A stretch of 14,278 nt of DNA from Pseudomonadota bacterium. Its GTDB lineage: Bacteria; Bdellovibrionota; FAC87; UBA2466. Positions within the stretch are counted from its first letter, which is position 1. The number at the start of each line of letters is the position of its first letter. This document shows, piece after piece, positions 85 to 14,278 of the stretch. The notes beneath the pieces were generated by a model. That model did no database searches. It saw only the letters and a program-made list of their open reading frames with translations, and had not been told where the DNA came from. The translations under genes were made by a program, and so were the position numbers. The DNA lies in contig JAYSWN010000046.1 in the NCBI GenBank assembly GCA_043718025.1, forward strand, positions 1-14,278, written 5' to 3'.

Positions 85-1272
85 TCAGTTTTTGTAAACG
101 TGAGCGAGGGCTTCGTTCCAGCGGGTGTCTTTTGCGAATTTCAGCTTCCCGTACCGGTCCGAGTAGAGATTGAAACTATAACTATTACTAGGCACCCAAA
201 TCGACACGCCCGTGGCCCGAATAAGCCCGGGAGACACTTGACTGTCGATCACGTAGGTGCGCATCGCATTCTTAATGCCATCGAGTTCAGGCTTTAACTT
301 GAGATCGGTCTTTTCTAACTCGACCACGAGATCGCCAAGGTCACGGTAATCTCGAAAGTAGAACGGAAGGGCTAGCTCCATTGCGGCCTTAAACTTTTTA
401 AGGTCGTCGGCGTTCATGGTGAGCACGGCCGCACTCAATGCCCGGATGGCCGTATTGAGTCGTTCGCTCTCATTAAGTTTTGTCGACGATAGACCGACAC
501 TGCGCGCCAAAAAGAAGCCCTTGGCGTACGACTTCACGTACTCATCGTTTAAGATTTTGGTGATGTCTTCAGAGGTGGCGCGGGGATTCTTCACCCAACG
601 CTCCAAAAATTTATCGTAAGGCCAACCAGCTCCGGGCTCCACCTCTTCGGAGGCCACCATCACGTCGGTGCCCGAGGCGATCTCGTTACCCACTTCGGCC
701 ATGCCCATCAAACAGGCATCTAGGCCATAAATATCGACGGGTTTGCCGTAGAGTTTTTTAAGTTCATCGCCGATCTGCCCCATTTGAACGGTGCTGATGA
801 TGTGGTGGGTAAAATCATCATTGCTGATGTCCATCATTCGCATTCCCGGTTGGAGGCCTTTGCGGTGCCAGCCGCCGCCGTGGTTCCAGATTACGAAGAA
901 GGTGCGCTTAGCCGGGTATTTTTCATTGGCCCACTGCGCGAATTTAACCGCCTCTTGCCAGTCTCCCATGTCGACGCGGGGAAGCTCTTGCACGATTGGA
1001 GAGGTGACGTTCACAGAATCATTGTCTTTGGTAACCAATAGGCGTTGGGTCTTTTCATTTTTGCTCGAGGCCCACTGCACCAGCACGTTGATGTCGTCGG
1101 TGGAGCCCACCGTTTCCATCTGGTTTATATTTAACTTGCCGAAAGAATCTAAGTTGTTGTGGCCGTTTAAGAACACAAGAAAATTCCATTCACGGAGGGG
1201 AGCTTTAGCGGACGACGCGTGGGCAACGGGGAGGACGCCAATAAGGACGAGACAAAGCGCCTTTAAGAGCAT
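85..1272 (-). CDS. Secreted clostripain-family (peptidase C11) cysteine protease
   Basis: N-terminal signal peptide (MLLKALCLVLIGVLPVAHA). C11 motifs: WNFLVFLNGHNNL, DMGD, catalytic WNHGGGW (His) and LDACLMG (Cys), ASEEVEPGAGWPY, YRDLGDL and GVSIWVP. GAGG lies 5 nt upstream of the ATG. Confidence 0.92.
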   Translation of the reverse strand: MLLKALCLVLIGVLPVAHASSAKAPLREWNFLVFLNGHNNLDSFGKLNINQMETVGSTDDINVLVQWASSKNEKTQRLLVTKDNDSVNVTSPIVQELPRVDMGDWQEAVKFAQWANEKYPAKRTFFVIWNHGGGWHRKGLQPGMRMMDISNDDFTHHIISTVQMGQIGDELKKLYGKPVDIYGLDACLMGMAEVGNEIASGTDVMVASEEVEPGAGWPYDKFLERWVKNPRATSEDITKILNDEYVKSYAKGFFLARSVGLSSTKLNESERLNTAIRALSAAVLTMNADDLKKFKAAMELALPFYFRDYRDLGDLVVELEKTDLKLKPELDGIKNAMRTYVIDSQVSPGLIRATGVSIWVPSNSYSFNLYSDRYGKLKFAKDTRWNEALAHVYKN

Positions 1273-1316
1273 TGAGACCTCGATTGTTTGTTGGATTGTT
1301 TTGTGGGGACCGGTTT

Positions 1317-1325
1317 ATTTTAGCA
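1317..1325 (-). promoter_or_regulatory. Possible extended -10 sigma70 promoter for the clostripain gene
   Basis: TGCTAAAAT (TGn + TAAAAT) on the minus strand, about 45 nt upstream of the ATG. No well-spaced -35 box. Confidence 0.35.
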
Positions 1326-1349
1326 TGAAACTGGTTTTCAACGAACCGA

Positions 1350-2072
1350 TCAATCGACGAGTAGCCAACTGCCGAGCCACGCCACCATTTCACCTGGAAT
1401 TTTAGCTTCGTTGGGGGTGAGCAGCGAGAACAGCCAACCTGCAAATTCCCACTGCGAGACTTTGACCTGGGGAAATGAGGCAAACAAGATTTCGCGACAA
1501 GCCCCCTTCGAATCCACGGCAGAAATCTCTAAAACACTCGGCGCCACGCTAATTCCCACGCGAAGCATTTTCCCTAAGCACTCTTTCGCCGACCACAAAC
1601 TCAAAAATGCGGCGGGGTGGTGGGGCATGAGGCGCTTCTCATTTGGCGTCAGTCGTTTGTGCAGCGATTGCGCCCGCTTTAACGCCGTGGCATCCAGGGT
1701 TTCCAAATCTAGGGTTAAGGGGAGTTCGAGGGCACTCGCCGCAAACGCTAGCGTCGATGAATGGGTAATGCTCGTATGCCAGGGCGAGGCGATCCAAACG
1801 GGTTGACCAAATACGCCCGGCAGAATTGAGGCCGCCGTTGGCGGGGCTTTTTCACCGAGGGCCGCCGCACTTCTTTTGGCGGCAACCCGGCCAAGTAGAA
1901 AATTGTGTCGCCTCTTTTCTGATTGAAACTGATTTCGTAATTTGCGTTCACTCGGGCTTAGCCACTTGGCGGGGGTTAGGGTCTCGCTATTCGCGGCTAC
2001 GCCCAGGGCGAACTGGTGATTCGAAAGAATCCCCTTGAAGGCGGGGCGCAAGACAGTTCGGCTTAGTGGCAT
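1350..2072 (-). CDS. 4'-phosphopantetheinyl transferase (Sfp-type)
   Basis: 240 aa with ERKLRNQFQSEKRRHNFLLGRVAAK, GQP, SITHS, LDLE (the GxDxE-like Mg-binding motif) and WSAKE..GK...G (WxxKEA motif). Start codon uncertain because no SD is visible. Confidence 0.88.
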   Translation of the reverse strand: MPLSRTVLRPAFKGILSNHQFALGVAANSETLTPAKWLSPSERKLRNQFQSEKRRHNFLLGRVAAKRSAAALGEKAPPTAASILPGVFGQPVWIASPWHTSITHSSTLAFAASALELPLTLDLETLDATALKRAQSLHKRLTPNEKRLMPHHPAAFLSLWSAKECLGKMLRVGISVAPSVLEISAVDSKGACREILFASFPQVKVSQWEFAGWLFSLLTPNEAKIPGEMVAWLGSWLLVD

Positions 2073-2187
2073 GGCACTGGGTTGTAGATGACTTCTTCAC
2101 CAAAAGGAAGGGCCGTAGCTTTAGAGGGTCCCAATCGATGAACATGCCGGGCGATCACTCAGGTTTTTGGAGCTACGTGGCTGGTTC

Positions 2188-2239
2188 GCTGGTCTCCCGC
2201 CGGTACCAGTTAATGAATTGGCACCGTAACGGGACCAGC
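2188..2239. repeat. Imperfect inverted repeat in the divergent intergenic region
   Basis: Outer arms GCTGGTC (2188-2194) / GACCAGC (2233-2239). Inner arms CGGTACCAGTT (2201-2211) / AATTGGCACCG (2216-2226), 9/11 complementary, around a 4-nt spacer. Confidence 0.6.
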
Positions 2240-2266
2240 CGGCGGTTGAACTTGAGCCTAAAAATC

Positions 2267-2283
2267 TTGGCACCAGAGTTGCT
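2267..2283 (+). promoter_or_regulatory. Sigma54 (RpoN) -24/-12 promoter
   Basis: TTGGCACCAGAGTTGCT matches the consensus TGGCACG-N4-TTGCW. GG (2269-70) and GC (2281-82) are exactly 10 nt apart, and the site ends 42 nt upstream of ATG 2326. Confidence 0.82.
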
Positions 2284-2325
2284 TTAGCATCAGTTCAGAA
2301 TTTGTTTAACCACTTGGAGTCTCTC

Positions 2326-2811
2326 ATGAAAAAATCAATTTTAGTTTTAGCCCTGGGAATTTTTGCCATTAATGCTTCGGCCGAAAGCCGCAAATCGGTC
2401 AGCATCAGCTACAACGAAAGAGCTACGGCGTTTGGTGAAAAGATGTTGGGCATGAAGCTCACCACCTTGTTTGTTGAGTACGACGGTTTGGTTCACCGCA
2501 GCGACTGTCCGGTTGGGCTTGAAATCCCCTGTTTTACCAAAGTGGTTGCCAAGTTGGACGCCTATAAGATGGATGAGATTCAGAATCTAATCAGCGACGC
2601 TCATGCGCAAAAAAACAAATTGGTTCTCTCAAAGACTACCGCCCGTTGCATTGCCCCGGCTTCAAAAGAACGTTTTGTTTCTGCCGACAACGATTCGGTA
2701 AAGTTAGAAAAGGGCGATATCTGCTCAGCCGTCTTCGAGAGCAACACGGCCGCCGGTAAAAAACTCACGCAGATAGCGAACGAGTTGGTTCGCAAAACTA
2801 CGAAGAACTAA
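2326..2811 (+). CDS. Small secreted hypothetical protein (161 aa, 4 Cys)
   Basis: GGAG at 2316-2319 precedes ATG 2326, which is preferred over the track start at 2302. Classic Sec signal MKKSILVLALGIFAINASA. Four cysteines. Followed by a terminator. No family recognised. Confidence 0.85.
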   Translation: MKKSILVLALGIFAINASAESRKSVSISYNERATAFGEKMLGMKLTTLFVEYDGLVHRSDCPVGLEIPCFTKVVAKLDAYKMDEIQNLISDAHAQKNKLVLSKTTARCIAPASKERFVSADNDSVKLEKGDICSAVFESNTAAGKKLTQIANELVRKTTKN

Positions 2812-2835
2812 AAAAGATTGGGTTGGGGATAGTGG

Positions 2836-2870
2836 GAGGGCCAGTTCCCGGGGGGGGCTGGCCCTCTTTT
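2836..2870 (+). terminator. Intrinsic terminator between the convergent secreted-protein gene and mscL
   Basis: Stem GAGGGCCAG (2836-2844) / CTGGCCCTC (2858-2866), extendable by G-U pairs, followed by TTTTAATT. Confidence 0.8.
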
Positions 2871-2885
2871 AATTGCGGATAAGAA

Positions 2886-3305
2886 TTACGAGCGCGACTT
2901 TAAGAGGTCGCGGATTTCGCCCAAGAGTTGCTCTTCGTTGGTGGGGGCCGGCGGCGGCACCGGTTTGGCCGCCTCTTTCTGCTTCATCTTAGAGACCATT
3001 TTTAGAAGGGCGAATACTGCCGCTGCCACCAGCGTGAAATCGATCACCTGGTTGATAAACAGACCATAATTGATGGTGGCCGCACCGGCCTTTTTGGCTT
3101 CTGCAAGCGAGGCAAAATCACCGCCGGAGAGGTTGACGAAAAGGCTTGAAAAATCAACCTTGCCCATCAACATGCCCAGGGGGGGCATCATCACGTCGGC
3201 TACGAATGATGAAACGATCTTTCCAAACGCGGCGCCAATGATGATGCCAATCGCCATGTCCAAGACATTGCCCCTAAAAATAAAGTCTTTAAACTCTTTC
3301 AACAT
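2886..3305 (-). CDS. mscL: Large-conductance mechanosensitive channel MscL
   Basis: MLKEFKDFIFRGNVLDMAIGIIIGAAFGKIVSSFVADVMMPP, INYGLFIN and C-terminal EEQLLGEIRDLLK are hallmark MscL sequences. Confidence 0.98.
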   Translation of the reverse strand: MLKEFKDFIFRGNVLDMAIGIIIGAAFGKIVSSFVADVMMPPLGMLMGKVDFSSLFVNLSGGDFASLAEAKKAGAATINYGLFINQVIDFTLVAAAVFALLKMVSKMKQKEAAKPVPPPAPTNEEQLLGEIRDLLKSRS

Positions 3306-3431
3306 AGAATCCCTCGTTAAATAAAGGCCCGTTAATCTCGTCTAAAGGCGATCAAGTCAAAGTTTTTTGGCTTGATGCGTCGAATCGACCGTTGCCGCTG
3401 GATTTTGGAAGAGGGAGTTTTCTTCAAGCTT

Positions 3432-3460
3432 TTGACGGCGTGTCCCCAAGCCCCTAGAAT
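3432..3460 (+). promoter_or_regulatory. Sigma70 promoter of the SPOR-cupin-manC operon
   Basis: TTGACG (3432-3437), 17-nt spacer, TAGAAT (3455-3460). The ATG follows at 3472. Confidence 0.72.
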
Positions 3461-3471
3461 AAGATCACTTC

Positions 3472-4065
3472 ATGATACGAAACCCCTCACGCCGCTTTTT
3501 TCCCAAAGAGGTCGCCGTCCTCTTTGGGCTGTTTGTATTGAATGCGGTGCTTATGTTCGTAGTGGGTTTAAGCATCGGAAAGAGCTGGCGGCCCAAAGCC
3601 AAGATGCAGGCAAGTATTGCGGTGCCAGTTTCAGAGGCGTCGATGGGCGGGCCGCCGCTTCCTGCTCCGGCCTGGGCCCCCGACAAGTGGAAGAGCACGG
3701 TTTCAAGTTCAGACCCCATTCCACCGGTGACCGGCGCGGCGACTAAGGTGGTTAAGACGCTCCCGCTGGCTGAGAAAACGGCCACCGCCGATGTGCTCAG
3801 TTTTCCCAAAGGGCAATTCACCGTTCAGGTGGGCAGCTACTTGAGTGAACCCGAGGCCAATGAACGAATTGAAGAGCTGCGAAAATTGGGTTTTCCCCAC
3901 GCCTATTTTTCGGCTAAGGAGTTGGGTGATCCCAAGTTGCTCTGGTACCGCGTTTGGTTAGGGCACTTCTCTACTAATGAAAGCGCCCGTCGTGGTGGTG
4001 AGTGGTTACAGAAGCGCGGCGAAGTGAAGAGCTATCTGGTCAGAAAGAGTGAGCCAAATGGTTAG
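3472..4065 (+). CDS. Membrane-anchored SPOR-domain protein (FtsN/DedD/DamX-like architecture)
   Basis: Short N-terminal tail, one TM helix (VAVLFGLFVLNAVLMFVVGLSIG) and a Pro/Ala/Thr-rich linker. C-terminal SPOR repeats FTVQVGSY..EANERIEELRKLGF and WYRVWLGHFST..A. Confidence 0.9.
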   Translation: MIRNPSRRFFPKEVAVLFGLFVLNAVLMFVVGLSIGKSWRPKAKMQASIAVPVSEASMGGPPLPAPAWAPDKWKSTVSSSDPIPPVTGAATKVVKTLPLAEKTATADVLSFPKGQFTVQVGSYLSEPEANERIEELRKLGFPHAYFSAKELGDPKLLWYRVWLGHFSTNESARRGGEWLQKRGEVKSYLVRKSEPNG

Positions 4066-4402
4066 AAAAGTTGAAAAGCCTTGGGGCTACGAACTGATTT
4101 GGGCCGAGACGGAAAATTACGTTGGAAAGATTCTATTCGTGAAGGCGGGTGAGAGCCTGAGCTTGCAGTATCACCGAATAAAAGAAGAGACGATGTTTCT
4201 TGAGAGCGGAGAAGTTCTGCTTGAGTCTGGAACCGACGAAAACAATTTGCAACCTGTTTCCTTCGCGGCCGGCACCGCGTTTCATATTTCACCCGGCGTA
4301 TTGCATCGGCTTACGGCAAAAACGGATTGCCGCGTTTTTGAAGTCTCTACTCCTCATTTAAACGACGTCGTGCGCTTAAAAGATAGGTATGGCCGTGGCT
4401 AA
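4058..4402 (+). CDS. Stand-alone cupin, similar to the type II mannose-6-phosphate isomerase domain
   Basis: VEKPWG, LSLQYHRIKEET, HISPGVLHRL, EVSTP and DVVRLKDRYGR are typical of the PMI type II C-terminal cupin. The ATG at 4058 overlaps the SPOR gene end. Confidence 0.88.
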   Translation: MVRKVEKPWGYELIWAETENYVGKILFVKAGESLSLQYHRIKEETMFLESGEVLLESGTDENNLQPVSFAAGTAFHISPGVLHRLTAKTDCRVFEVSTPHLNDVVRLKDRYGRG

Positions 4403-5426
4403 AGCAGTAGCCGTAGTAATGGCAGGCGGCAGCGGCACGCGCTTTTTTCCTTTGAGCCGCAAAGCCCTTCCTAAGCAATACCTTCCTTTGTTTAGCGAAA
4501 AATCGCTTCTTAAAGAGACCATCGACCGGGTTGAGCCGTTGGTAGGTAAGGGCAATGTGTTTCTTTGTTCCGCCGCGTCACAGTCTTTGCTCGCCAAGGA
4601 ACACGCTGGTCCCGGCGTAGGTTTTTTTTTCGAGCCCGAGGCCAAAAATACGGCGCCCTGTTTAATGTGGGCGGTGTTAGGCCTATTGGAGAGTGGCCAC
4701 GCCGAGAGCGAAGTGATGGTGGCGCTACCCGCCGACCATTTTGTTCGAGACGGCGAAAAGTTTCGGACGAGCTTGGCGTTGGCGATTGATCTGGCCCAAC
4801 GCGAAAATATTTTGGTGACCCTGGGGATCACCCCTTCTTCACCGCACACCGGTTACGGCTACATCGAAGGCAAAGAAAAGTGGGGGAGCACGCCCTTCTT
4901 GAAAGTGGCTGGTTTCATCGAGAAGCCGGAGCTCGCCCGCGCGCAAGTTTTTTTTAAACAGAAGACCTATTTTTGGAATGCGGGCATTTTTGTTGGTACC
5001 CTGCAGAGTTTTCGCGCGGCCTTTGAGCGGCATTTGCAAAGCAGTTGGAATAATCTCACCACCGCAAAAGGGCCGGCCCGCGACGCGGTTTACCTTTCGT
5101 TAAAAGCCGAATCCATCGATACCGCCGTGATGGAAAAAGAGACTTCGCTAGTGGTGTTGCCGGTCGGTGACATTGGCTGGAGCGATGTGGGGTCGTGGAG
5201 TGCGTTGGCCGACCTGTTGACCGGTGGCGATAGTATTTCCAACCATGCCCTGAATGGCGGGGTGGAGTCGGTAGATAGCCAAGGTTGCTTCGTTTCGTCG
5301 CAAAAAAAAGTGGCGTTATTGGGCGTTCGCAACCTTATCGTAGTGGATACTGAAGACTGTTTACTGATTGCCAGCCGCAGCCATGACCAGCAGGTGCGGG
5401 AAATAGCTAAGATTTTGGATTCCTAA
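4389..5426 (+). CDS. manC: Mannose-1-phosphate guanylyltransferase (GMP domain only)
   Basis: VMAGGSGTRFFPLSR..PKQY, EPEAKNTAP, PADH, LVTLGITP..TGYGYI, FIEKP, WNAGIF, SIDTAVMEK and WSDVGSW. The protein ends without a cupin domain. Confidence 0.95.
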   Translation: MAVAKAVAVVMAGGSGTRFFPLSRKALPKQYLPLFSEKSLLKETIDRVEPLVGKGNVFLCSAASQSLLAKEHAGPGVGFFFEPEAKNTAPCLMWAVLGLLESGHAESEVMVALPADHFVRDGEKFRTSLALAIDLAQRENILVTLGITPSSPHTGYGYIEGKEKWGSTPFLKVAGFIEKPELARAQVFFKQKTYFWNAGIFVGTLQSFRAAFERHLQSSWNNLTTAKGPARDAVYLSLKAESIDTAVMEKETSLVVLPVGDIGWSDVGSWSALADLLTGGDSISNHALNGGVESVDSQGCFVSSQKKVALLGVRNLIVVDTEDCLLIASRSHDQQVREIAKILDS

Positions 5427-5457
5427 GAGAAATTCCCCAAACCGTTGAAACCATAAT

Positions 5458-5486
5458 TTGACCCAAAATAACTCTCTGCGTATAAG
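5458..5486 (+). promoter_or_regulatory. Putative sigma70 promoter abutting the desaturase start
   Basis: TTGACC (5458-5463), 17-nt spacer, TATAAG (5481-5486). ATG 5494 lies 7 nt beyond the -10 box. Confidence 0.5.
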
Positions 5487-5493
5487 GTCGCCC

Positions 5494-6234
5494 ATGAGTT
5501 ATTGGATCGCTTGTCTTTTAGTTTTTGTTGCCGCCTACCTGCTTAATATTTTTTACATCAGCGTGCTGTACCATCGAGGCCTTACCCACTCCGCCGTAAA
5601 ACTGCGCCCTTGGCTGGTCCGCTTTACCGCGCGCACGGGAAACTGGGTGACCGGCCTCGACCCTAAGGGCTGGACCTGCATGCACCGGATGCACCACCAA
5701 TATTCTGACACGCCGCAAGATCCGCACAGCCCAGTTTTTCAAGGGTTGTTTCCCCTTTTTTTAGGTCAGCTGCATTCGTACAACCGCATTCTGGTGGGGC
5801 TGTTAAAAAAAGAAGAGCCATTCGTTTCGGTGGTCGCCGATCTTCCATTTGGCGTAAGCTGGCTCAATCGAAAAAAACTGTGGATCGCTCCTTACCTTTT
5901 ACAGGTGCTCATCGGCTTGTTGATTGGCTATGCCTTTGGTGGTTTTTGGATCGGTTACGCCTACTGGTTGGGCATGATGAGCCATCCCATTCAAGGCTGG
6001 ATGGTAAACGCATTGGCGCACCGCTACGGATACCGTAATTTTGAAACCCCCGACAACTCGCGCAACAACTGGATGGTGGCCTACTTGGTCTTTGGCGAAG
6101 GGTATCAGAATAATCACCATCAATACCCGAGCCGTGCGAACTTTGCCGTAAAGCGAAGCGAAGTTGATTTAGGTTTCCTGCTTTGCCAGCTCAGCCAAAG
6201 ATTGGGGCTCTTGAAAATTGCGCATTCAGAGTAG
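5494..6234 (+). CDS. Membrane fatty-acid (acyl-CoA delta-9-like) desaturase
   Basis: His boxes YHRGLTH, HRMHH (with DTPQDPHSP), VNALAH..GYRNF..DNSRN and GEGYQNNHH..P.RA. Hydrophobic segments present. ATG 5494 is preferred over TTG 5458. Confidence 0.92.
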   Translation: MSYWIACLLVFVAAYLLNIFYISVLYHRGLTHSAVKLRPWLVRFTARTGNWVTGLDPKGWTCMHRMHHQYSDTPQDPHSPVFQGLFPLFLGQLHSYNRILVGLLKKEEPFVSVVADLPFGVSWLNRKKLWIAPYLLQVLIGLLIGYAFGGFWIGYAYWLGMMSHPIQGWMVNALAHRYGYRNFETPDNSRNNWMVAYLVFGEGYQNNHHQYPSRANFAVKRSEVDLGFLLCQLSQRLGLLKIAHSE

Positions 6235-6301: not shown

Positions 6302-6925
6302 ATGAAAACCGTTTTGGTTGTGGATGACGATACTGAAATTTTAGACATGGTTCGCTTAGTTTTGGAGGAGAAGGGGCACAACGTAGCCACCGCCAAAGAC
6401 GGCAAAGCCTGCATGCGAGATATCATCGTTAAGAAGCCGGATCTCATCATCATGGATCTGAAAATGCCGAATATGGACGGCTTGAACGCCTTAGATTTAA
6501 TTCGGGTAACGCAGTTGAACCGTCAGGTTCCGATTATTATGTGGTCGGGAGACACTGATCCTAATGTGATTGCGCGCGCCGAACGTCTCGGGGCCGACGA
6601 CTTTCTTTCTAAATCGACCCCAATGCCTGAGTTCACCAAAATTGTAGAAGATCATCTTTTTTCTTTGGAGAACGAAGAGGTACTAGAACTCTTGAAAAAG
6701 GGCACCCTGAATAAGGCGAGCGGGTCACTTCCCGGTGGAATGAATCCGGCGGAGTATCCCGGATGGGACACCTATCCGGTTTCGCTGCGGGAGCGCGAGC
6801 TGGCGTTGCAAATGCGCGAGGGCAGCGCCCAAGAAAAGGTGATGGCGCTCACCCCGATGCAGATGAAAGATAACGTACGGCTGTTTCAGAGAATGCCAAA
6901 ACGTTGGAGAATGTTTTATCCCTAA
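6302..6925 (+). CDS. Response regulator: REC domain plus an unrecognised ~85-aa C-terminal domain
   Basis: VLVVDDD, PDLIIMDLKMPNMDG (phospho-acceptor Asp), PIIMWSG and GADDFLSK. The C-terminus shows no HTH, GGDEF or AAA+ motif. Confidence 0.92.
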   Translation: MKTVLVVDDDTEILDMVRLVLEEKGHNVATAKDGKACMRDIIVKKPDLIIMDLKMPNMDGLNALDLIRVTQLNRQVPIIMWSGDTDPNVIARAERLGADDFLSKSTPMPEFTKIVEDHLFSLENEEVLELLKKGTLNKASGSLPGGMNPAEYPGWDTYPVSLRERELALQMREGSAQEKVMALTPMQMKDNVRLFQRMPKRWRMFYP

Positions 6926-6928
6926 GAA

Positions 6929-8641
6929 TTAGTTCGGGCGAAAGCGGAAGGTGAGCTCGAAGTCTACGTTGCGATCATTTCGACTGATTTTCACCGGCGT
7001 GGGATCAATCAAGAGACGCAGGGTGAGGGCGGATTTCAAAAATTCTTGCACCGTTTCGGGGCTATTAGAAAGGCCCTTTAGGGTTAGCACGTTGTCTCTA
7101 TAGGCCAACGATTTTAGTTGGATTTGTGATGGCAAGACTGAGAACAGCTCTTTCAAAGCGCTGCTCATCTGCCACGATCGTCCTTCAATCACCTTCACTA
7201 AACTCAACTTTTTGTCAGTCAGGGCTTCTTTTTTTCGGGCGTTTTCAATGAAGTCTTTTAGCGGTCCTAATGTGGCAATCTCACGTTTCTTTTCTTGAAG
7301 TTGCTTAGTGGTGCCCATGCGCGCCCAAATTGGATACCCGGCCAAGGCCCCCAAAATTAGAATGCCTCCCAAAACGGCCAGCACCTTCGGATTTACGAAC
7401 GAGAAACGATCCAACGTTCCGCCCAGGCTGATCCGGGTAGTGGGGCGAAGGCGTTTAAGGTTTGAGAACAGTGTCTTAAAATTCTTAAGCGAATCTCTCA
7501 TGTTCCGCATGGCTTCTTGAGAGCCGGCGGGCATCAAATTAATTTTGAGGTCGTTCTTCTCAGATAAAGTCGCGCCCAAGGCGGCCACGGTTTCCACTGG
7601 AACCAGCTGGTCTACGGGCAGGGCACGAAGGCCCAAGTCGGCCGAAAGGCTTTCGGTAATCCGGAACAGAGTGGCGCCGACCGACACCAGGCAAAAGTGG
7701 GTGGGCAGATCAATTCCATTTTCGTTACAGCCCGAAAAAAGCTGGGTTTTAAGCTGTTGGCCAAGCGGTACGTAAACGTCGTGAATCGCCTGATTGGCAA
7801 GCACGCGGCGCTCGCGAACTTCAACCGTATTGGCTCCGAGAACCGGCGAATCTTGGTTGTCTACCGGAGGGGGAACGCGAGTCTGCAGCAAACGATCTAA
7901 AAAGGAGTTGATGCCGATTGGCAGGCGAGGGGCCACCAGGCGACCATCTGCACTCAAGATCATGAGGTAGCAATGGTCCCAATCGAGTAACACTAAAAGA
8001 CGGGTGGCGTTTTCAAGCTTCGCGCGCTGCCAAATAAAATTGGCCGATCGGGCCAAGCAGAGCAAGTCGAAATCCCAGCTCTTAATATTTACTTTCGCTT
8101 TTTTTAAAGGGCGAGCAATCTTATCGATGATCCCCTTTTGGATGGCGCCAACGAAATAGTCCACCTGTGCGTCCGCGGACTGTTTTTTGTTACCGTTGAT
8201 CTGAATGTCGCGGATGTCGTCCCAATCTTCGCCACTACTTTGCTTCAATTGAATTCGAAAGGCTTTGACCGCTTGCGGTCGGCCCAAGCGGGGAAGTCTT
8301 GCCAGCACGAAATGGCTGGGCTTTCCGCTGAGGGTCAGGTGAACGGGGAGTTTATTCTTTTTAGCTTCGGCCAGGGTTTTATCTAGGCCGTCAACCAGCT
8401 TATCAATGGCTTCGTGGCCTTGATTCAGAGGAAGGTGCTTAACGATCTGGCGCTTGGAGTTCAAATAAAGAATGTTGGTGCGTTCGGAACCAATGTGCAC
8501 TCCAACGTATTCTGCCGCCTGATTGCCTTCTACGGGCAGGGCGAGTTGAATCGTTTCAGACGTGCCCTTGATCGCTTCGCGAAATGGGCGAAGGACCGAA
8601 TAGAGTGCATCAAGTTCTTCTTGTGTTACCGCCCGTTTCAC
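6929..8641 (-). CDS. PilM-PilN fusion (GspL-like architecture) of a type IV filament system
   Basis: Degenerate actin-like PilM motifs (YVGVHIGS, RLPIGIN, FCLVSVGATL..ITESLSADLGL, AALGATL). These are followed by the PilN INLLP-like motif (INLMP, 7529-7543), one TM helix, a coiled coil and a PilN ferredoxin-like domain (LKELFSVLPSQIQLKSL..LTLKGLS..VQEF..FELTF). GTG start with AGGAG upstream. Confidence 0.78.
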   Translation of the reverse strand: MKRAVTQEELDALYSVLRPFREAIKGTSETIQLALPVEGNQAAEYVGVHIGSERTNILYLNSKRQIVKHLPLNQGHEAIDKLVDGLDKTLAEAKKNKLPVHLTLSGKPSHFVLARLPRLGRPQAVKAFRIQLKQSSGEDWDDIRDIQINGNKKQSADAQVDYFVGAIQKGIIDKIARPLKKAKVNIKSWDFDLLCLARSANFIWQRAKLENATRLLVLLDWDHCYLMILSADGRLVAPRLPIGINSFLDRLLQTRVPPPVDNQDSPVLGANTVEVRERRVLANQAIHDVYVPLGQQLKTQLFSGCNENGIDLPTHFCLVSVGATLFRITESLSADLGLRALPVDQLVPVETVAALGATLSEKNDLKINLMPAGSQEAMRNMRDSLKNFKTLFSNLKRLRPTTRISLGGTLDRFSFVNPKVLAVLGGILILGALAGYPIWARMGTTKQLQEKKREIATLGPLKDFIENARKKEALTDKKLSLVKVIEGRSWQMSSALKELFSVLPSQIQLKSLAYRDNVLTLKGLSNSPETVQEFLKSALTLRLLIDPTPVKISRNDRNVDFELTFRFRPN

Positions 8642-8646
8642 GAGGG

Positions 8647-10332
8647 TTACTCCTTGATATTGATGTGACCAATGGGTACCGAGATGGGGATACCCGCTTC
8701 GTCGTAAAATTTACCCAGGGCATCGTTACCTTGGCGATCGTAGTTTTCTTTAAGCTCATTGGTGACCACTTTGGGAGACAGCAGCACGACAATCTCGGTT
8801 TTTTGGTAACGATCGGAAGTTCCTCCGAACAAGCTGCCGAGCAGCGGCAGATCGCCTAAGATCGGGATGCGGTCGGTTTTGCGTTCGGTGCGATCTCTCA
8901 TCATGCCGGCAATGACAATTGTCTGACCGTTGCGGGCCAAGATTTTGCTCTCGGATTGGGTAGTGGTGGAATTCGGTGAACCGGTAAGAGCGTCGATGGT
9001 TCCATCTGACACTTCCGGTTTTACGTTCATGATAATGTCATTGTTGCCGGTGATGTGCGGTTTAATTTTGAGAATGGTTCCCACGGTTAAAAATTGAATG
9101 TTCTCGGCCGAGCCCGTTGACGAAACGGTAGTAGTTTTAAACCCGAGACGTTGTCCAAGGGTAATGGTGGCTTCGTTATCGGTAAGTGACAATACCCGGG
9201 GGCGGGCCAATAAATCAGTTTTTGATTTCGAGGAAACGGCCGAAATTACGCCGGTGACGCTTTGCCAAGTAAGGCCAAAGAACATGCCTTTTTGGTTGGG
9301 GTTGTTTGGTACCACTGGACTGAGCGCATTCGTACGGACATTATTGATTACTTGAGTGGCCGAGGTCGATCCGTTTTTGATCGTGCCGCTCCAATCAATG
9401 CCGTAGTCTAATGCGTCGCTGCGATCGACCTGGAGGATGGCAGATTCGACTTCGACGAGGCGCGGCTCGACGTCGAGTTGAAGCAGCATCGCCTCAACAT
9501 TTTTTAGGTATTCGTAGCGATCGATCATGAATAAAGAGTTGGTGTTGGGATCAATGCTGATCTGCGCGTCTTTACCGGCAATCTCACGAATGCGGGGCAG
9601 AATCTCAGAAACATCGACGTAACGAATTTTAAAGCTGCGGTAAGTGCGGGCTTCGTTGGCGGTACGGACGATGGTGACATCTCCCATGTGCTCAGCCCGG
9701 TACGCCGTGGGACGTAGTACCAAGTCGATCGCCTGTTCATAAGATAAACCGTCTAAACTAACGGTAACCGTGCCGTTAACGTTACTCGGCAACACTAAGC
9801 TCTTGTTGCTCTCGGCCGCTAGCGACCGAATCACCTTATCCAGGGGCGCACCACGAACGTTAAGGCTAACTTTTTTCGCGCGGGGTCCCGTTGAAGCGGC
9901 TTTGCGAAATGGGTCGTCAGGCACAAGGGCCAAGTCGTTTGAGTTTTGGCGCGCAAATGTAAACGAGTCTGTAGCATCGTGCCACAGGGTGAGGGTGCCC
10001 ACCCCGGTACGAGAGTCCATAATCACTAAAGCTTTTTTTACTCCGCGCCCTTTTTCATTGGTGAAGATGAATTCTTTTTGAAAATTTTGCGGTGAGTTAG
10101 ATTTCCAGCGAACTTCAGAAAGGGTGTTGTCCTTATTGTGGACCACTTGATATTGCGGGGTTTCTGGCGTGAAGCGAAGAATCAGTTTTTTGGTGATTCC
10201 TCGCTCTTCCATTAGAGCGCCGGCGAACGTGGGCACATTTTCTTTGGCCGTCGGAGTGGCGGCACAACCTTCTAAGAGAAGGGCCAGTACCAGCCCGCCG
10301 AAGATTTTAGATTTTAGAGATGTAGTTTTCAT
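8647..10332 (-). CDS. pilQ: Outer-membrane secretin (PilQ/GspD family) with a lipoprotein-type signal
   Basis: Signal ending LLLEG-C. N0 domain KVSLNVRGAPLDKVIRSLA..VNGTVTVSL..YEQAIDLVL and N3-like domain ISIDPNTNSL..LDVEPRLVEVES. Secretin domain LARPRV..DNEATITLG, VGTILKIKPHI, NGQTIVIAG and IPILGDLPLLGSLF. ATGA overlap with the upstream gene. Confidence 0.93.
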   Translation of the reverse strand: MKTTSLKSKIFGGLVLALLLEGCAATPTAKENVPTFAGALMEERGITKKLILRFTPETPQYQVVHNKDNTLSEVRWKSNSPQNFQKEFIFTNEKGRGVKKALVIMDSRTGVGTLTLWHDATDSFTFARQNSNDLALVPDDPFRKAASTGPRAKKVSLNVRGAPLDKVIRSLAAESNKSLVLPSNVNGTVTVSLDGLSYEQAIDLVLRPTAYRAEHMGDVTIVRTANEARTYRSFKIRYVDVSEILPRIREIAGKDAQISIDPNTNSLFMIDRYEYLKNVEAMLLQLDVEPRLVEVESAILQVDRSDALDYGIDWSGTIKNGSTSATQVINNVRTNALSPVVPNNPNQKGMFFGLTWQSVTGVISAVSSKSKTDLLARPRVLSLTDNEATITLGQRLGFKTTTVSSTGSAENIQFLTVGTILKIKPHITGNNDIIMNVKPEVSDGTIDALTGSPNSTTTQSESKILARNGQTIVIAGMMRDRTERKTDRIPILGDLPLLGSLFGGTSDRYQKTEIVVLLSPKVVTNELKENYDRQGNDALGKFYDEAGIPISVPIGHINIKE

Positions 10333-11258
10333 TTCACCACCACGGTTTTGACGGCCGTTCCACTTTTGAGGGTTACACTTTTGGACCGGGTATCCACGCG
10401 CACTATTTTCCAGCTTCCTATGGAATCGCCCTCTTCATAAATACTTTCGTCGGAGACCACGCTGGTACCGACAATCTTTTCAAATTTGGGAAGTTTCGGC
10501 AGGGCTCGACTGTGACCGCCACTGATAATTCGTGCGACTGGAGCCTGGGCCGCCGGTTGCGGCTGCACCGGCGTAGACACGAAGATGCCGCGAAACGCAT
10601 TGGGGTCGGTTTCACTCGCGACCGCCTCAGTGGGATTGGCCGTGGTCGTTTTTTCTTCCTTTTTATCCTTGGCCAGTTTTTCTTCCGGAACCCAGTCAGA
10701 CGGCGCCAAATAGAATTCAAAGAAGAGATTCGCCTTCAGAGTATCCGCCTGATTCTTTTCTTGCGGAACTTCGAACACAAAATCATTGATTCGGAACAAG
10801 CCGTTATATTTTTCCATGTGTTCAACGTAAGGAATCAGCATGGTTTGGTGCATACTGGCTTCGAATCGGTAGCGGGCGGCGCGTGGTTGCGAACTTGCGC
10901 TGCCGGGCAAACCAAAGCTTACCGGACTCACCGATGATTGCGTTGCCGACTGAAAGGCAATGGTGCCTGGATGGTCCCGATCGAACTGAGTAACAAAGTA
11001 GTCAAGCACTTCACTTGAATTGGTTTTGTCGGGGAGTCGCGCCTTTGCCTTACGGTCGGCATCTTCGATCTTCTTTTCCCAGGCTTTGTCGTACTGAGCG
11101 GCATCTAAGCGAACTTGTTGGATCTCTTTGCCAAGTTTTTCCGACTCCACTTTCATGGCTTCCGTCTCTTCAAGGTACGGCGCGCCCAAACGGTAAATAC
11201 CCACGCCGAATACGGCGACGGCTACTATTCCATTTTTTGCGATAGTCTTTACGTTCAT
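10329..11258 (-). CDS. PilO/GspM-like protein with a C-terminal PilP/GspC-HR-like beta domain (probable PilO-PilP fusion)
   Basis: N-terminal TM and coiled coil, then PilO-like RLPDKTNSSEVLDYF and YRFEASMHQTMLIPYVEHMEKYNGLFRINDF. A low-complexity linker with DPNAF leads to IYEEGDSIGSWKIVRVDTRSKSVTL. The gene sits between pilC and the secretin. Confidence 0.62.
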   Translation of the reverse strand: MNVKTIAKNGIVAVAVFGVGIYRLGAPYLEETEAMKVESEKLGKEIQQVRLDAAQYDKAWEKKIEDADRKAKARLPDKTNSSEVLDYFVTQFDRDHPGTIAFQSATQSSVSPVSFGLPGSASSQPRAARYRFEASMHQTMLIPYVEHMEKYNGLFRINDFVFEVPQEKNQADTLKANLFFEFYLAPSDWVPEEKLAKDKKEEKTTTANPTEAVASETDPNAFRGIFVSTPVQPQPAAQAPVARIISGGHSRALPKLPKFEKIVGTSVVSDESIYEEGDSIGSWKIVRVDTRSKSVTLKSGTAVKTVVVK

Positions 11259-11272
11259 GACTTAATTTACAC

Positions 11273-12511
11273 TTACTCGTTACTGCCCTTTGAAGAGGCG
11301 CTTAGTTTGAACAACGGTACGAAAACTGAGATAGCCACCATACAAATCAGGGTGGCGGAGAAGAGAAGCAGCAGTGGCTGTAGCACCGCTGTGGTCTTGC
11401 CTAAAAGTTCGTTGTACTGCTTTTTGTAGTACAGAAAGGTGTTTTCGAGCATCTTGTCGATGTGTCCGGTTTTTTCACCGACCACGAAAAGTTGAAGGGC
11501 CATGTCGGGAATTAGCTGACTACCTTCCATGGCTTTGGAGACTGGCTCCCCTTCTTTGACGCTATTGATGAGCTTTTCGAAAAACTTTCGCTTGGCTTCA
11601 CCGCGAATGGTCTCCTGGCAAATGCGTAAGCCTTCAAGTAAGGGAATGCCCGACTTGATAAGACTGGAGAGCGTCTTGGCGAACAGGGCGACGAACATGG
11701 CCACGAAAACATCTTTGATAAGGGGCAGCGATAGAAATAAATTGTCGCGTGCTTCGGAGGTTGCCTCGCTTTTGAAGAAGTAGGCAATTGAACCCACCAC
11801 GGCGCCAATGCCGCCAAGAATTGTGACCGTATTGCCGCGCAACTGATGGCTACAGTCGATGAAGAACTGAGTTAGAAACGGCAGTTTCACACCGAATCCC
11901 TTAAAGATCTCTTCGAACTGCGGGAACATAAACATCAGAAGACCGATTACCAGGACCAAAACCAGGGAAAGGAGGAAGACGGGGTAGGCCGCGGCCTTAA
12001 CCACCTTGCTGCGAATGTCCTGTTGTTCTTGGACCAGGTCCACCAGCTGATTGAGCGCGCCGTCGAGGTTACCGGACTTTTCTCCTACGCCAATGAGGTT
12101 GGTGTGGAGCGGAGGAAAGCTTTCAGGAAATTTTTGCAGGGCCAGGGAGAGGGGAAATCCTTCGGAAAGTTCAAACATCACCGTCTTTAATATTTCGCTT
12201 AGGCGAGGGTGTTTTAACTGGTCCCCCAACATCTTAATCGCGAGAAAGATGGGAATACCGGCCTTGATCAGAAAGCCCAACTGTTCGTAGAAGGTGAGTA
12301 CGAGTGCGATCGGCACCTTAGGTGCGCCGCCAAAAAGATTTAGGTTAAGGTCTTTCTTCTCGGCGCGCTTGTCGGCGACCGTCTTTACTTCAAGTATCGT
12401 CAGATTGCGTTGTTGAAGAATTTGCATCACTTCGCCTTCGCTCTGCGCTTCAACGTGATCGGAGATTTCTTTCCCCGATTTATCAATGGCTTGGTAGTGG
12501 TAAAAGGGCAT
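11273..12511 (-). CDS. pilC: Inner-membrane platform protein PilC/GspF
   Basis: MPFYHYQAIDKSGK..VEA, QLGFLIKAGIP, GEKSGNLD, AAAYP, LPFLTQ, TLSSLIKSGIPL, VGEKTGHID and QPLL..VFVPLF. Two T2SSF repeats and three TM helices. GAGG SD upstream. Confidence 0.96.
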   Translation of the reverse strand: MPFYHYQAIDKSGKEISDHVEAQSEGEVMQILQQRNLTILEVKTVADKRAEKKDLNLNLFGGAPKVPIALVLTFYEQLGFLIKAGIPIFLAIKMLGDQLKHPRLSEILKTVMFELSEGFPLSLALQKFPESFPPLHTNLIGVGEKSGNLDGALNQLVDLVQEQQDIRSKVVKAAAYPVFLLSLVLVLVIGLLMFMFPQFEEIFKGFGVKLPFLTQFFIDCSHQLRGNTVTILGGIGAVVGSIAYFFKSEATSEARDNLFLSLPLIKDVFVAMFVALFAKTLSSLIKSGIPLLEGLRICQETIRGEAKRKFFEKLINSVKEGEPVSKAMEGSQLIPDMALQLFVVGEKTGHIDKMLENTFLYYKKQYNELLGKTTAVLQPLLLLFSATLICMVAISVFVPLFKLSASSKGSNE

Positions 12512-12540
12512 AAGTGATTCCTCAAAACTCTTCTAGTGTC

Positions 12541-12567
12541 TTATCGTCCCCCGCCCTTTGCTTCTTA
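12541..12567 (-). promoter_or_regulatory. Sigma28 (FliA)-like promoter for the pilC operon
   Basis: The minus strand reads TAAG-N15-GACGATAA against the consensus TAAA-N15-GCCGATAA, with one mismatch per box and exact spacing. The -10 box ends 29 nt upstream of the pilC ATG. Confidence 0.7.
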
Positions 12568-12656
12568 AGTATTTAGAATAATGCGCGGTGTCTAGGTTTA
12601 GGGAGCGGGGGAGCGCTACTGGCCACTGAGGCTACGTTCTTTGCTGATTCACTACT

Positions 12657-12683
12657 TAATTTTTATGAGCTAATTGCCGAAAG
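12657..12683 (+). promoter_or_regulatory. Sigma28 (FliA)-like promoter for the cheX-like/pilB operon
   Basis: TAAT (12657-60), 15-nt spacer, GCCGAAAG (12676-83). The GCCGA core is intact and the spacing is exact. Confidence 0.6.
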
Positions 12684-12736
12684 GAGAGTGAGGCGGGCTC
12701 GTGAGATTTATCGAGCTTACCGTTGGAGAGAATTTC

Positions 12737-13276
12737 ATGCTGAATCTCGATCAGGTGAATCAAATTATCAATGCCGCACTGGTAACTCTGGAGACCCGAG
12801 TGGCGGTTGGTAAAGAGCTGAGCATTAGCAACCCCGAAGTCATTAAAACTTCGGGGGCTTACGGTAGTGTGATTCTCTGCGCTCTTTTTACGGGTGGGGT
12901 CGAGGGCCGACTTACCTGGACTTTGGATTGGGGCACCAGCTTCGCTATTTCTGAGGCCATTTCCGGACAGAAGGCCGATGGGTTTAATGAAGTGACCCAA
13001 CAAGCCCTAGAAGGGCTGTTCCACGAATTTTTGCAAGGAGTGGCGAATGCACTTTCCGAAAGTGGTTTACAGTTGGATATTCGCGTCTTGCCCACTCTAG
13101 TCGATACTAGCGTGTTGCTTAGCGAAGACGGAAATCCCGGCGCCATAAAAATCCCGCTAAATATGGACGGCGGAAACATAACTCTTTATTTATCATTAGA
13201 TGTCGGAACCACGCCCATCGTGGGGGCGGTTTCCGATCCCGAGGCTCCGAGCGTACCCGAGGCCGACGCCGCGTAA
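12737..13276 (+). CDS. CheX/CheC-like protein lacking the ExxN catalytic motif
   Basis: CheX-like pattern: VNQIINAALVTLE, ALFTGGVEGRLTWTL..TSFAISEAISG, QALEGLFHEFLQGVANALSESG.QLDI..PTLV, IKIPLNMDGGNITLYLSL. ATG 12737 has GGAG at 12725-28; GTG 12701 is an alternative start. Confidence 0.72.
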   Translation: MLNLDQVNQIINAALVTLETRVAVGKELSISNPEVIKTSGAYGSVILCALFTGGVEGRLTWTLDWGTSFAISEAISGQKADGFNEVTQQALEGLFHEFLQGVANALSESGLQLDIRVLPTLVDTSVLLSEDGNPGAIKIPLNMDGGNITLYLSLDVGTTPIVGAVSDPEAPSVPEADAA

Positions 13277-13308
13277 TTGATTTTGTATTTTATTGATAGA
13301 AATAAAAC

Positions 13309-14278
13309 ATGATTCAGCTCAAAGAAGGATTTTTTGAAGAGCAGCTTCAGGTTCGTTACAAGATAACGCCTGAACAGATTGCTCAAGCACAAAAACTCAA
13401 TGCGAAGAACCGTCATGGGCTGTTGACGAACCTTCAGCAATTGGGAGTGATCTCTGAAAAGCAGATGATCGAAGTACAGGTTGAGCTATTTGGGACGAAC
13501 TTGCTCCAGCTCAAAAATCACCCCCTTAAAAAAGACGTGGTGGAGCTTATCCCCGAAGACATTCGCGGCCGCCAACAAATTGTTCCGGTAACGCTGGTGG
13601 GTAACATTCTCACTGTAGCCACGGCATCCATTTTCCAAGCTCAGCAGGCATTGCCTGAAATTCAAAAGCACACGAACCATTTCATTCATTTTGTTTTGGC
13701 GTTTCCCTCAGAAATTAACAAGCGTTTGCTCGAGTACTCGAAAACCGAAGCGAACATGGACGAGATGCTCGAAAAGCGCTCGGCGGAGCTGACCGCAACG
13801 AGCGATACCGAGGTGAAGCGCTCTACCGAGGATCCCCATGGCCCGGTGGCCAAGGTGATCGAGTTTTTGGTAAATCAGGCCGTCACTTCCGGGGCCAGCG
13901 ACATGCATTTTGAGCCGCTGGCGACTTACTACCGCGTCCGTTTTAGGCAAGACGGCATTCTCCGCGAGGTTAAGAAGTTCGACAAGGTATTTACGGCCCC
14001 GTTCGCCGCCGCGGTCAAGATCATGGCGAAGTTAGACATTGCGGAATCTCGATTGCCACAAGACGGAACCTTTAGGCAGGCCATCGGAAACCGATTGGTC
14101 GACTTTCGCGTAGCCACCTATCCCACGGAACAAGGCGAGAAGATCGTGGTTCGGGTGCTCGATAGCTCAAAGAGCGCGGTGAGCATCGATAACCTCATGC
14201 TTCCCCCCAGCGAGAAGAAAAAACTTTTGCAGATGATTGAGAATCCCTACGGCTTAATCGTGGTTGCCGGCCCTACGG
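13309..14278 (+). CDS. pilB: PilB/GspE-family assembly ATPase, 3' truncated by the window end (absent from the ORF track)
   Basis: My translation from ATG 13309 is open to the window end: MIQLKEGFFEEQ...ELIPEDIRGRQQIVPV...LTVAT...PVAKVIEFLVNQAVTSGASDMHFEP...RVRFRQDGILRE...KIMAKLDIAESRLPQDG...DFRVATYPTEQGEKIVVRVLD...PYGLIVVAGPT. It ends at the start of the Walker A motif. Confidence 0.95.
   Translation, partial: MIQLKEGFFEEQLQVRYKITPEQIAQAQKLNAKNRHGLLTNLQQLGVISEKQMIEVQVELFGTNLLQLKNHPLKKDVVELIPEDIRGRQQIVPVTLVGNILTVATASIFQAQQALPEIQKHTNHFIHFVLAFPSEINKRLLEYSKTEANMDEMLEKRSAELTATSDTEVKRSTEDPHGPVAKVIEFLVNQAVTSGASDMHFEPLATYYRVRFRQDGILREVKKFDKVFTAPFAAAVKIMAKLDIAESRLPQDGTFRQAIGNRLVDFRVATYPTEQGEKIVVRVLDSSKSAVSIDNLMLPPSEKKKLLQMIENPYGLIVVAGPT

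Follow-up and report, generated by a model that had tools for sequence, protein, structure and literature searches.

A compact, divergent type IV filament locus with predicted PilM–PilN and PilO–PilP fusions in one family of Bdellovibrionota

Gene layout and predicted fusion of the alignment subunits

The window, the whole 14,278-nucleotide stretch of DNA analysed here (GenBank contig JAYSWN010000046.1), is an entire contig, C175, of G000, a 4.14-Mb, 92%-complete Bdellovibrionota genome (other C-numbers are contigs of this genome, other G-numbers related genomes). One half of it carries most of the core of a type IV filament machine, which we think probably builds a surface pilus. The locus consists of the following open reading frames (ORFs), with the evidence used to assign each:

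11273–12511, minus strand: pilC, inner-membrane platform protein of the PilC/GspF family (two Pfam T2SSF matches, NCBIfam, tree)
10329–11258, minus strand: pilO(P), 309 aa, hereafter pilOP (structure model, Foldseek, ESM Atlas)
8647–10332, minus strand: secretin (Pfam, NCBIfam, PDB profile search, alignment, tree)
6929–8641, minus strand: pilMN, 570 aa (structure model, Foldseek, hidden Markov model [HMM] search, Pfam)
12737–13276, plus strand: CheX-family homologue without E-x-x-N (profile match to 1xko); the start at 12737 follows the alignment of homologues, with an alternative upstream GTG start at 12701
13309–14278, plus strand: pilB, extension ATPase, residues 1–323, cut by the contig end (Pfam, NCBIfam, trees)

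The four minus-strand genes are separated, in order of transcription, by a 14-nt gap, a 4-nt ATGA overlap, and a 5-nt gap, and they diverge from the cheX-like gene and pilB; these ORF coordinates bear out the layout given in an earlier reading of the sequence alone. A search of 12400–13400 found no sigma-70 promoter. Pfam and NCBIfam scans of the window support the platform, secretin, ATPase, and PilN tail, and give a weak CheX match.

The order pilC-pilOP-secretin-pilMN, divergent from pilB, recurs in all eight other genomes that carry the system, whole or in the part that their contigs reach, so the locus is neither chance nor an assembly error; this is the synteny comparison that the sequence-only reading had proposed. 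Against same-genus orthologues, identity at codon positions 1, 2, and 3 is 78–86%, 85–93%, and 39–45% in all five genes tested, the cheX-like gene included, a pattern that indicates purifying selection. Pseudogene and misassembly were both considered and rejected.

PilMN is predicted (pLDDT, the predicted local distance difference test, 65) to comprise a PilM actin-like domain (about residues 42–362), an NLxP motif (366–371), one transmembrane helix (about 420–438), a coiled coil, and a PilN ferredoxin domain (491–566). The best match of the model is PilM 2ych (VIA: Z 21.4, root-mean-square deviation [rmsd] 4.2, 292 aligned), the top nine Foldseek matches are all PilM, and the Pfam PilN family is matched; in the HMM search the tail is closest to PilN of M. 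xanthus (3jc8_Na, E 2e-5), with PilM at E 0.05. The motifs of the PilM domain are degenerate, the first phosphate-loop Asp being His in 10/10 sequences and the second loop altered, which suggests that nucleotide binding has likely been lost. With its C-terminal half, the PilMN profile picks up stand-alone ORFs of 183–303 aa in 52 other genomes as well, and the one read in context (G051) is pilN of a pilMNOPQ operon. The earlier proposal that PilMN has a specifically GspL-like fusion architecture did not hold: the best matches are PilM and PilN, and a natural PilMN fusion is known in a type IVa pilus (T4aP) system, that of C. difficile (PMC6916266, in excerpt).

PilOP is predicted (pLDDT 68.7) to join an N-terminal helix and coiled coil, a PilO ferredoxin domain (75–186), a disordered linker, and a PilP/GspC-HR-like beta domain (254–309). 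Its model matches PilO 2rjz (VIA: Z 10.6, rmsd 2.2, 91 aligned), and its top three Foldseek matches are PilO. The C-terminal domain matches GspC-HR (3oss_C) with a middling score (Z 7.9, rmsd 1.7, 54 aligned), PilP being a structural homologue of GspC-HR (PMC4471445, in excerpt). A PDB sequence search with PilOP returned 0 matches, and a literature search for PilO–PilP fusions found no paper. Predicted structures thus support a PilM–PilN fusion in one 570-aa protein and a PilO–PilP/GspC-HR fusion in one 309-aa protein. All parts of the T4aP PilM, PilN, PilO, and PilP subcomplex would then be present as two fusions, the PilP part by virtue of the GspC-HR match.

The secretin is laid out like PilQ, with a lipobox-like Cys23 (such a Cys occurs in 4/8 aligned homologues), an extra N-terminal domain, an N0/STN domain, a single N3 repeat, and the secretin domain. 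It has one Secretin_N repeat rather than the N0-N1-N2-N3 architecture of GspD of type II secretion systems (T2SS), and PilQ entries align to its profile in one stretch, 97–524, in the PDB profile search. Its NCBIfam scores are 183.5 bits for GspD (cut-off 351), 180.6 for PilQ (cut-off 284), and 117.9 for MshL (cut-off 250). The layout agrees with the earlier label of a PilQ-like secretin; the PilQ cut-off is missed, and the tree does not fix its position.

The C-terminal half of the ATPase (residues 326–569) lies on C181. Clade ATPases score 502–535 bits against the PilB cut-off of 675.65 and also miss that of GspE (6/6 tested), cut-offs that many other PilB-like matches miss too; the PilB and GspE of the host genome pass theirs, with 691 and 678 bits. 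A match to NF053729 is likewise below cut-off. The ATPase has an MshEN-type N-domain; an RLG-like motif, the cyclic di-GMP (c-di-GMP) motif of such domains, occurs in 0/23 clade ATPases and is present in host PilB, host GspE, and Aeromonas MshE. The system passes no PilB, GspE, PilQ, GspD, MshL, or GspF cut-off and merits its earlier description as a divergent, compact type IV filament with fused alignment subunits.

Companion systems, distribution, and pilins

G000 encodes five secretins. Its T2SS lies on C41 in the usual gene order, its T4aP on C180 (pilB-pilT-pilC), C199 (pilMNOPQ), and C234 (pilA), and two further loci are Tad-like, a label taken from reading their ORFs. The fused-subunit machine is therefore additional to a complete T4aP, a T2SS, and two Tad-like loci. 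Service of its secretin to the C180 motor was considered and rejected, the canonical pilMNOPQ being on C199.

The clade-specific N-terminus of the ATPase occurs in 9/401 Bdellovibrionota genomes, which belong to one family and to 6 of its 12 genera. Full-length PilMN is encoded by eight of these carriers; the contig of the ninth, G015, reaches only as far as the secretin. In the protein database, 26 of 120 listed ATPase matches are 49–100% identical, after which identity drops to ≤42%, the range outside Bdellovibrionota being under-sampled. A metagenome scan returned 53 loci with only 23–33% identity, and those with readable pilus genes, among 14 examined or harvested, are ordinary pilB-(pilT)-pilC clusters; among 884 plasmid records nothing exceeded 60% identity. 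Six genomes without the motor retain a homologue of the pilin, several with an eroded N-terminus, which would fit ancestral presence of the system followed by its loss. The literature outside supplements yielded no account of the system; related ones might be listed in the genome tables of PMC6668835. A paper on Bdellovibrionota metagenome-assembled genomes (MAGs) only mentions Tad/Kil pili in the part available (PMC13200544), and the available parts of PMC13755416, PMC12189002, and bioRxiv 10.1101/2023.06.09.544391 hold nothing further on it.

The sequence-only reading had left pilus versus secretion system undecidable, the pilins lying outside the window. They can be assigned from neighbouring contigs and from relatives, and they favour a pilus. 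A major pilin gene of about 150 codons adjoins pilB or lies within about 5 kb of it in 7/8 relatives (directly after it in G008, G010, and G012; within about 5 kb in G002, G003, G004, and G015); the pilB contig of G001 is too short, and there a pilin lies beside the same two membrane genes. The pilin of G000 is on C94, which two split genes tie to C181 and C175: a membrane gene is split between the end of C94 and the start of C181, and C94 begins with the 3' end of the pilin. Contigs of two sequencing runs, possibly the source of this DNA, extend 5021 bases past the window end, which fits a C175-C181-C94 scaffold by length alone. A second pilin copy of G000 is on C82, and G001 has eight near-complete major pilin copies, 50–90% identical to the locus-linked one. 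Such multi-copy variant repertoires are more typical of exposed pilins than of GspG.

A V-like minor pilin is encoded in all eight other carriers (broken in G003) and in 0/25 non-carriers. Where the contigs are long enough, W- and X-like genes come after it; the X-like proteins are 293–654 aa long, two of them with weak CBM/MAM matches, and a PDB sequence search with the W-like pilin was uninformative. In G000, C141 starts with what is probably a fragment of X, next to the same gene that neighbours X in G001. The earlier suggestion to look beyond 14278 for pilins, pilT, and pilD thus yields the C94 pilin, linked through C181, a pilD homologue on C119, and no dedicated PilT: none was seen in the loci read, and PilT-family copies number 2–3 in carriers and 1–4, mostly 3, in other genomes, with no rise where the system is present. 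A histidine kinase gene and a LuxR-type regulator gene adjoin the pilin genes in several carriers; orthologues of the two were not found in the G000 assembly.

Several further observations concern the pilins. In this genus pilB and the pilin are separated by genes for an Agl23/PMT-family glycosyltransferase-like protein, another large membrane protein, and a thioredoxin-like protein (G000 C94:241–3008 and C181:2–1260; L019:6920–10992), possibly for pilin glycosylation. Three pilin genes or fragments stand in tandem on a 1.2-kb contig of G001 (L178, G001:C330), which might be a cassette for pilin variation. In three carriers the V-like minor pilin has as its neighbour a small protein of 145–171 aa, predicted to be secreted (L204:2056–2493, L205:5842–6357, L207:1589–2041), with no Pfam match in the two scanned. 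In G003 (G003:C7, L203/L208) the V-like gene has an internal stop, which could reflect either decay of the system in this genome or an assembly error. Orphan major-pilin homologues in genomes without the motor are at L128 and L130–L133 (genus g11) and L126 (G005); in the four g11 genomes read their neighbour is a tRNA-synthetase-like gene, and in several copies the N-terminal motif is eroded.

G006 (L024), G016 (L025), G010 (L026), and G008 (L027) have another accessory type IV filament locus, with separate M-, N-, O-, and P-like genes, a short secretin, an ATPase, a platform, and, in two genomes, a gene of about 1300 codons. Its ATPase and platform group loosely, on long branches, with Aeromonas MshE and MshG; G008 and G010 carry both accessory systems.

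One gene in the window abuts the locus:

6302–6925, plus strand: response regulator, transcribed towards pilMN and unlikely to belong to the core

It adjoins the locus in the same genus only and differs from the LuxR-type regulator linked to the pilins. The rest of the window (85–6234) holds unrelated genes, for a clostripain-family peptidase, a 4'-phosphopantetheinyl transferase, MscL, a SPOR protein, a cupin, a fatty acid desaturase, and, with the cupin, a mannose-1-phosphate guanylyltransferase-like protein; their order is mostly kept within the genus.

Phylogenetic position and rival explanations

The trees drew on 12, 7, or 6 of the 26 clade ATPases, at most 24 of 94 other matches, and one MSH reference system, and the larger ATPase tree is a quick C20 tree. 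The clade's ATPases, its secretins, and its platforms each cluster, with strong support, as a separate group on a long branch, and the ATPase lies outside a 99-supported group of host PilB, Neisseria, and Acinetobacter. When rooted with PilT, the ATPase tree places the clade basally, a result to which we give little weight, since long-branch attraction may explain it. The approximately unbiased (AU) test rejected the idea that the system's ATPase arose as a duplicate of that of the host T4aP (p 0.024). The earlier reading had called for trees against T4aP, T2SS, and MSH references; with this thin sampling, none places the system firmly in any of them. All elements of a 'generic' type IV filament as defined in PMC6668835 (in excerpt) are present: an extension ATPase, an inner-membrane platform, and a major pilin, with a secretin and a prepilin peptidase as accessories. 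The ATPase is not found in the core T4aP/PilB clade; because T4aP are paraphyletic (same source), this excludes the core T4aP group only. In the best trees ATPase and platform are not inside the GspE and GspF clades, yet such nesting is not rejected. By these definitions the machine is likely either a generic system or a divergent T4aP.

On balance, we read the locus as an additional, family-restricted type IV filament machine, with PilM–PilN and PilO–PilP predicted to be fused, that probably assembles an adhesive surface pilus and has no dedicated retraction motor. Its genes, their distribution, the linked pilins, and the absence of an extra PilT are observed directly. Several results weigh against this reading. 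The secretin scores highest with GspD and the platform with GspF (301.6 bits, cut-off 424, versus 239.6 for PilC), and the best profile of the major pilin is the GspG model (26 and 45 bits), although these scores fall short of the GspG cut-off of 88.85 that the genome's own GspG passes with 112 bits. In AU tests, joining the ATPase with host PilB is rejected at that same p of 0.024 and with core T4aP marginally (p 0.045), grouping it with GspE is not rejected (p 0.155, 0.222), and for the positions of secretin and platform alternatives are not rejected (p 0.26–0.45). The GspL of the genome's own T2SS (C41:6095–7699) has a full PilM-family cytoplasmic domain, with PF11104 above cut-off, so a PilM fold leaves a GspL-like role possible for PilMN. 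The minor pilin operon is missing from the G000 assembly but for the probable X fragment, and the neighbourhood of the minor pilins showed no PilY1-like gene.

Much of this would suit a second, independently derived type II-like secretion system, in which PilMN would take the role of GspL, PilOP would cover those of GspM and GspC, and a short pseudopilus in the periplasm would push a substrate of its own through the secretin. The lack of a dedicated PilT, the fusion and degenerate nucleotide motifs of PilMN, the HR-like domain of PilOP, the profiles, and the unrejected groupings with GspE, GspD, or GspF agree with it, and the periplasmic part of PilMN also matches XcpY (Z 11.9), its topology being that of GspL; no cytoplasmic GspL or EpsL chain is among the 50 structure matches listed for PilMN, which does not by itself exclude GspL. 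We nevertheless consider this alternative, the main rival, unlikely: the secretin has a single N3 repeat, there are three minor pilins instead of four, with long variable C-terminal modules, a genome may hold up to eight variant major pilins, a complete T2SS is already present, and no conserved candidate substrate gene was seen in the loci read. A divergent MSHA-like pilus would account for the PilT-less locus, the single-N3 secretin, and an MshD-like minor pilin, since the V-like profile matches, over residues 18–98 (E 3e-8, Z=1000), a gene in an Aeromonas msh region that we take, from gene order in an unannotated record, to be mshD; one reduced ATPase tree (simple model, long branches) also joins the clade to MshE with support 50. 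It is improbable all the same, because larger ATPase trees and the platform tree separate the clade from MSH, the MshL model falls less than halfway to its cut-off, the clade ATPases lack the RLG motif of Aeromonas MshE, and the PilMN and PilOP profiles are unmatched in the Aeromonas msh region; nor was an mshM- or mshN-like gene noticed in the loci, at which no profile search for these was aimed.

The CheX-like protein had been taken as a chemotaxis-type regulatory input. Its profile matches T. maritima CheX (1xko, E 2e-8) over the CheX domain, the gene occurs in 7/9 carriers and 0/25 non-carriers, in every case immediately upstream of pilB (spacing −11 to 55 nt in the six loci measured), and G000 has two genes for methyl-accepting chemotaxis proteins, all of which would suit an active CheY-P phosphatase that places the machine under chemotaxis-type control. 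The catalytic helix, in contrast, has lost its key residues: GELGN of T. maritima CheX aligns to EGLFH, so that in the window the catalytic E is G and N is H. The active-site consensus D/S-x3-E-x2-N-x21-P (PMC12887009, in excerpt) aligns to Q/E-x3-G/E/L-x2-H/A, with the Asn absent in 7/7 homologues; the Pro after the helix is conserved, and another E-x-x-N (130–133, in 5/7) lies outside the catalytic helix. The gene is missing from carriers G008 and G015, and no flagellin or Pfam CheX was found in the 92%-complete G000. With E-x-x-N lost and flagellin not found, such an input is not supported, and an active phosphatase is very improbable. Judging from these residues, the protein is likely not a chemotaxis enzyme but a pseudo-phosphatase or an adaptor; the FliM middle domain, a dead CheC-fold scaffold, offers an analogy only. 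A complex prediction for CheX-like (1–160) with PilB (1–190) gave 0.21 against a mark of 0.32 and counts neither way. In G003 (L108:4386–5183) the CheX-like ORF reads through to 265 aa.

Proposed mechanism and comparison with known systems

By analogy with T4aP and T2SS biology, from which docking, PilOP pairing, and PilD processing are taken, the adhesive pilus might be built as follows. The ATPase would dock on PilMN, likely nucleotide-free like GspL, and drive the platform, while PilOP would pair with the PilN half and reach the secretin N0 domain through its PilP/HR-like tail. A shared PilD would process the major pilin, and the three minor pilins, with their variable C-terminal modules, could form the tip and act as the adhesin. 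Retraction may be absent, performed by the extension ATPase, or borrowed in trans from host PilT paralogues. Transcription of the pilin genes is likely governed by the histidine kinase and LuxR regulator linked to them. In what is the weakest step, the CheX-like protein would be a dead adaptor for the ATPase or for a phosphorylated receiver. More tentatively, the system may possibly be a separate type IV filament lineage outside core T4aP, T2SS, and MSH, a natural intermediate on the route from PilM plus PilN to GspL, already fused, with its nucleotide site lost and no PilT, in which a dead CheX-fold adaptor has replaced c-di-GMP control of the motor and which serves these probable predators as a dedicated variable attachment pilus.

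T2SS is thought to derive from T4aP through loss of PilT and fusion of PilM with PilN (PMC10191384). Combining the absence of PilT and a PilMN fusion with T4aP-type parts, the present system would allow the working of such intermediates to be tested in a natural example. A fused PilOP would fix PilO and PilP at 1:1, which is relevant to the way in which PilP is connected to the assembly complex, described as unclear (PMC4471445, in excerpt). The six-gene core is a compact candidate for reconstitution, and a dead CheX tied to a pilus ATPase, if true, would be a new way of controlling such a motor. What limits the impact is that each type of fusion is also seen elsewhere, that all carriers are MAGs of uncultured bacteria from a single family, and that function is predicted from genes alone.

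The fusions alone are not new. The C. difficile T4aP shares a natural PilMN fusion (PMC6916266, in excerpt); it is a monoderm system without a secretin, whereas an ATPase, a pilin family, and a CheX-like gene of its own set the present clade apart. Look-alike fusion clusters of similar length in the ESM Atlas (PilM_2+PilN or PilO+PilP) come from Bacillota, Patescibacteria, Planctomycetota, and Omnitrophota, and serve as leads only. The CheX-like protein resembles CheX/CheC/FliY over its full length, down to the Pro after the helix, and differs in its replaced catalytic Glu and Asn and in the tie of its gene to a pilus ATPase gene.

Among complete machines, the T4aP of M. xanthus, T. thermophilus, and P. 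aeruginosa share the PilM, PilN, and PilO folds, the PilP/HR-like domain, the single-N3 secretin, the MshEN-type ATPase N-domain, and V/W/X-like minor pilins. Here, in contrast, four subunits are in two proteins, the order is pilC-pilOP-Q-pilMN divergent from pilB, the ATPase is outside the core group, PilM nucleotide motifs are degenerate, and neither a dedicated PilT nor PilY1 was seen. T2SS are alike in that GspL corresponds to PilM+PilN (PMC10191384), in lacking PilT, in the best profiles (GspF, GspG), and in the HR-like domain; the present system differs in its one N3 repeat, an HR domain fused to PilO, three modular minor pilins, a multicopy major pilin, and GspD, GspE, GspF, and GspG scores all below cut-off. 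With the MSHA pilus it shares a PilT-less locus, an MshD-like minor pilin, and a partly lipidated secretin, here predicted from the lipobox-like Cys, and it differs in an ATPase without the c-di-GMP motif, an MshL score below cut-off, and separation in most trees.

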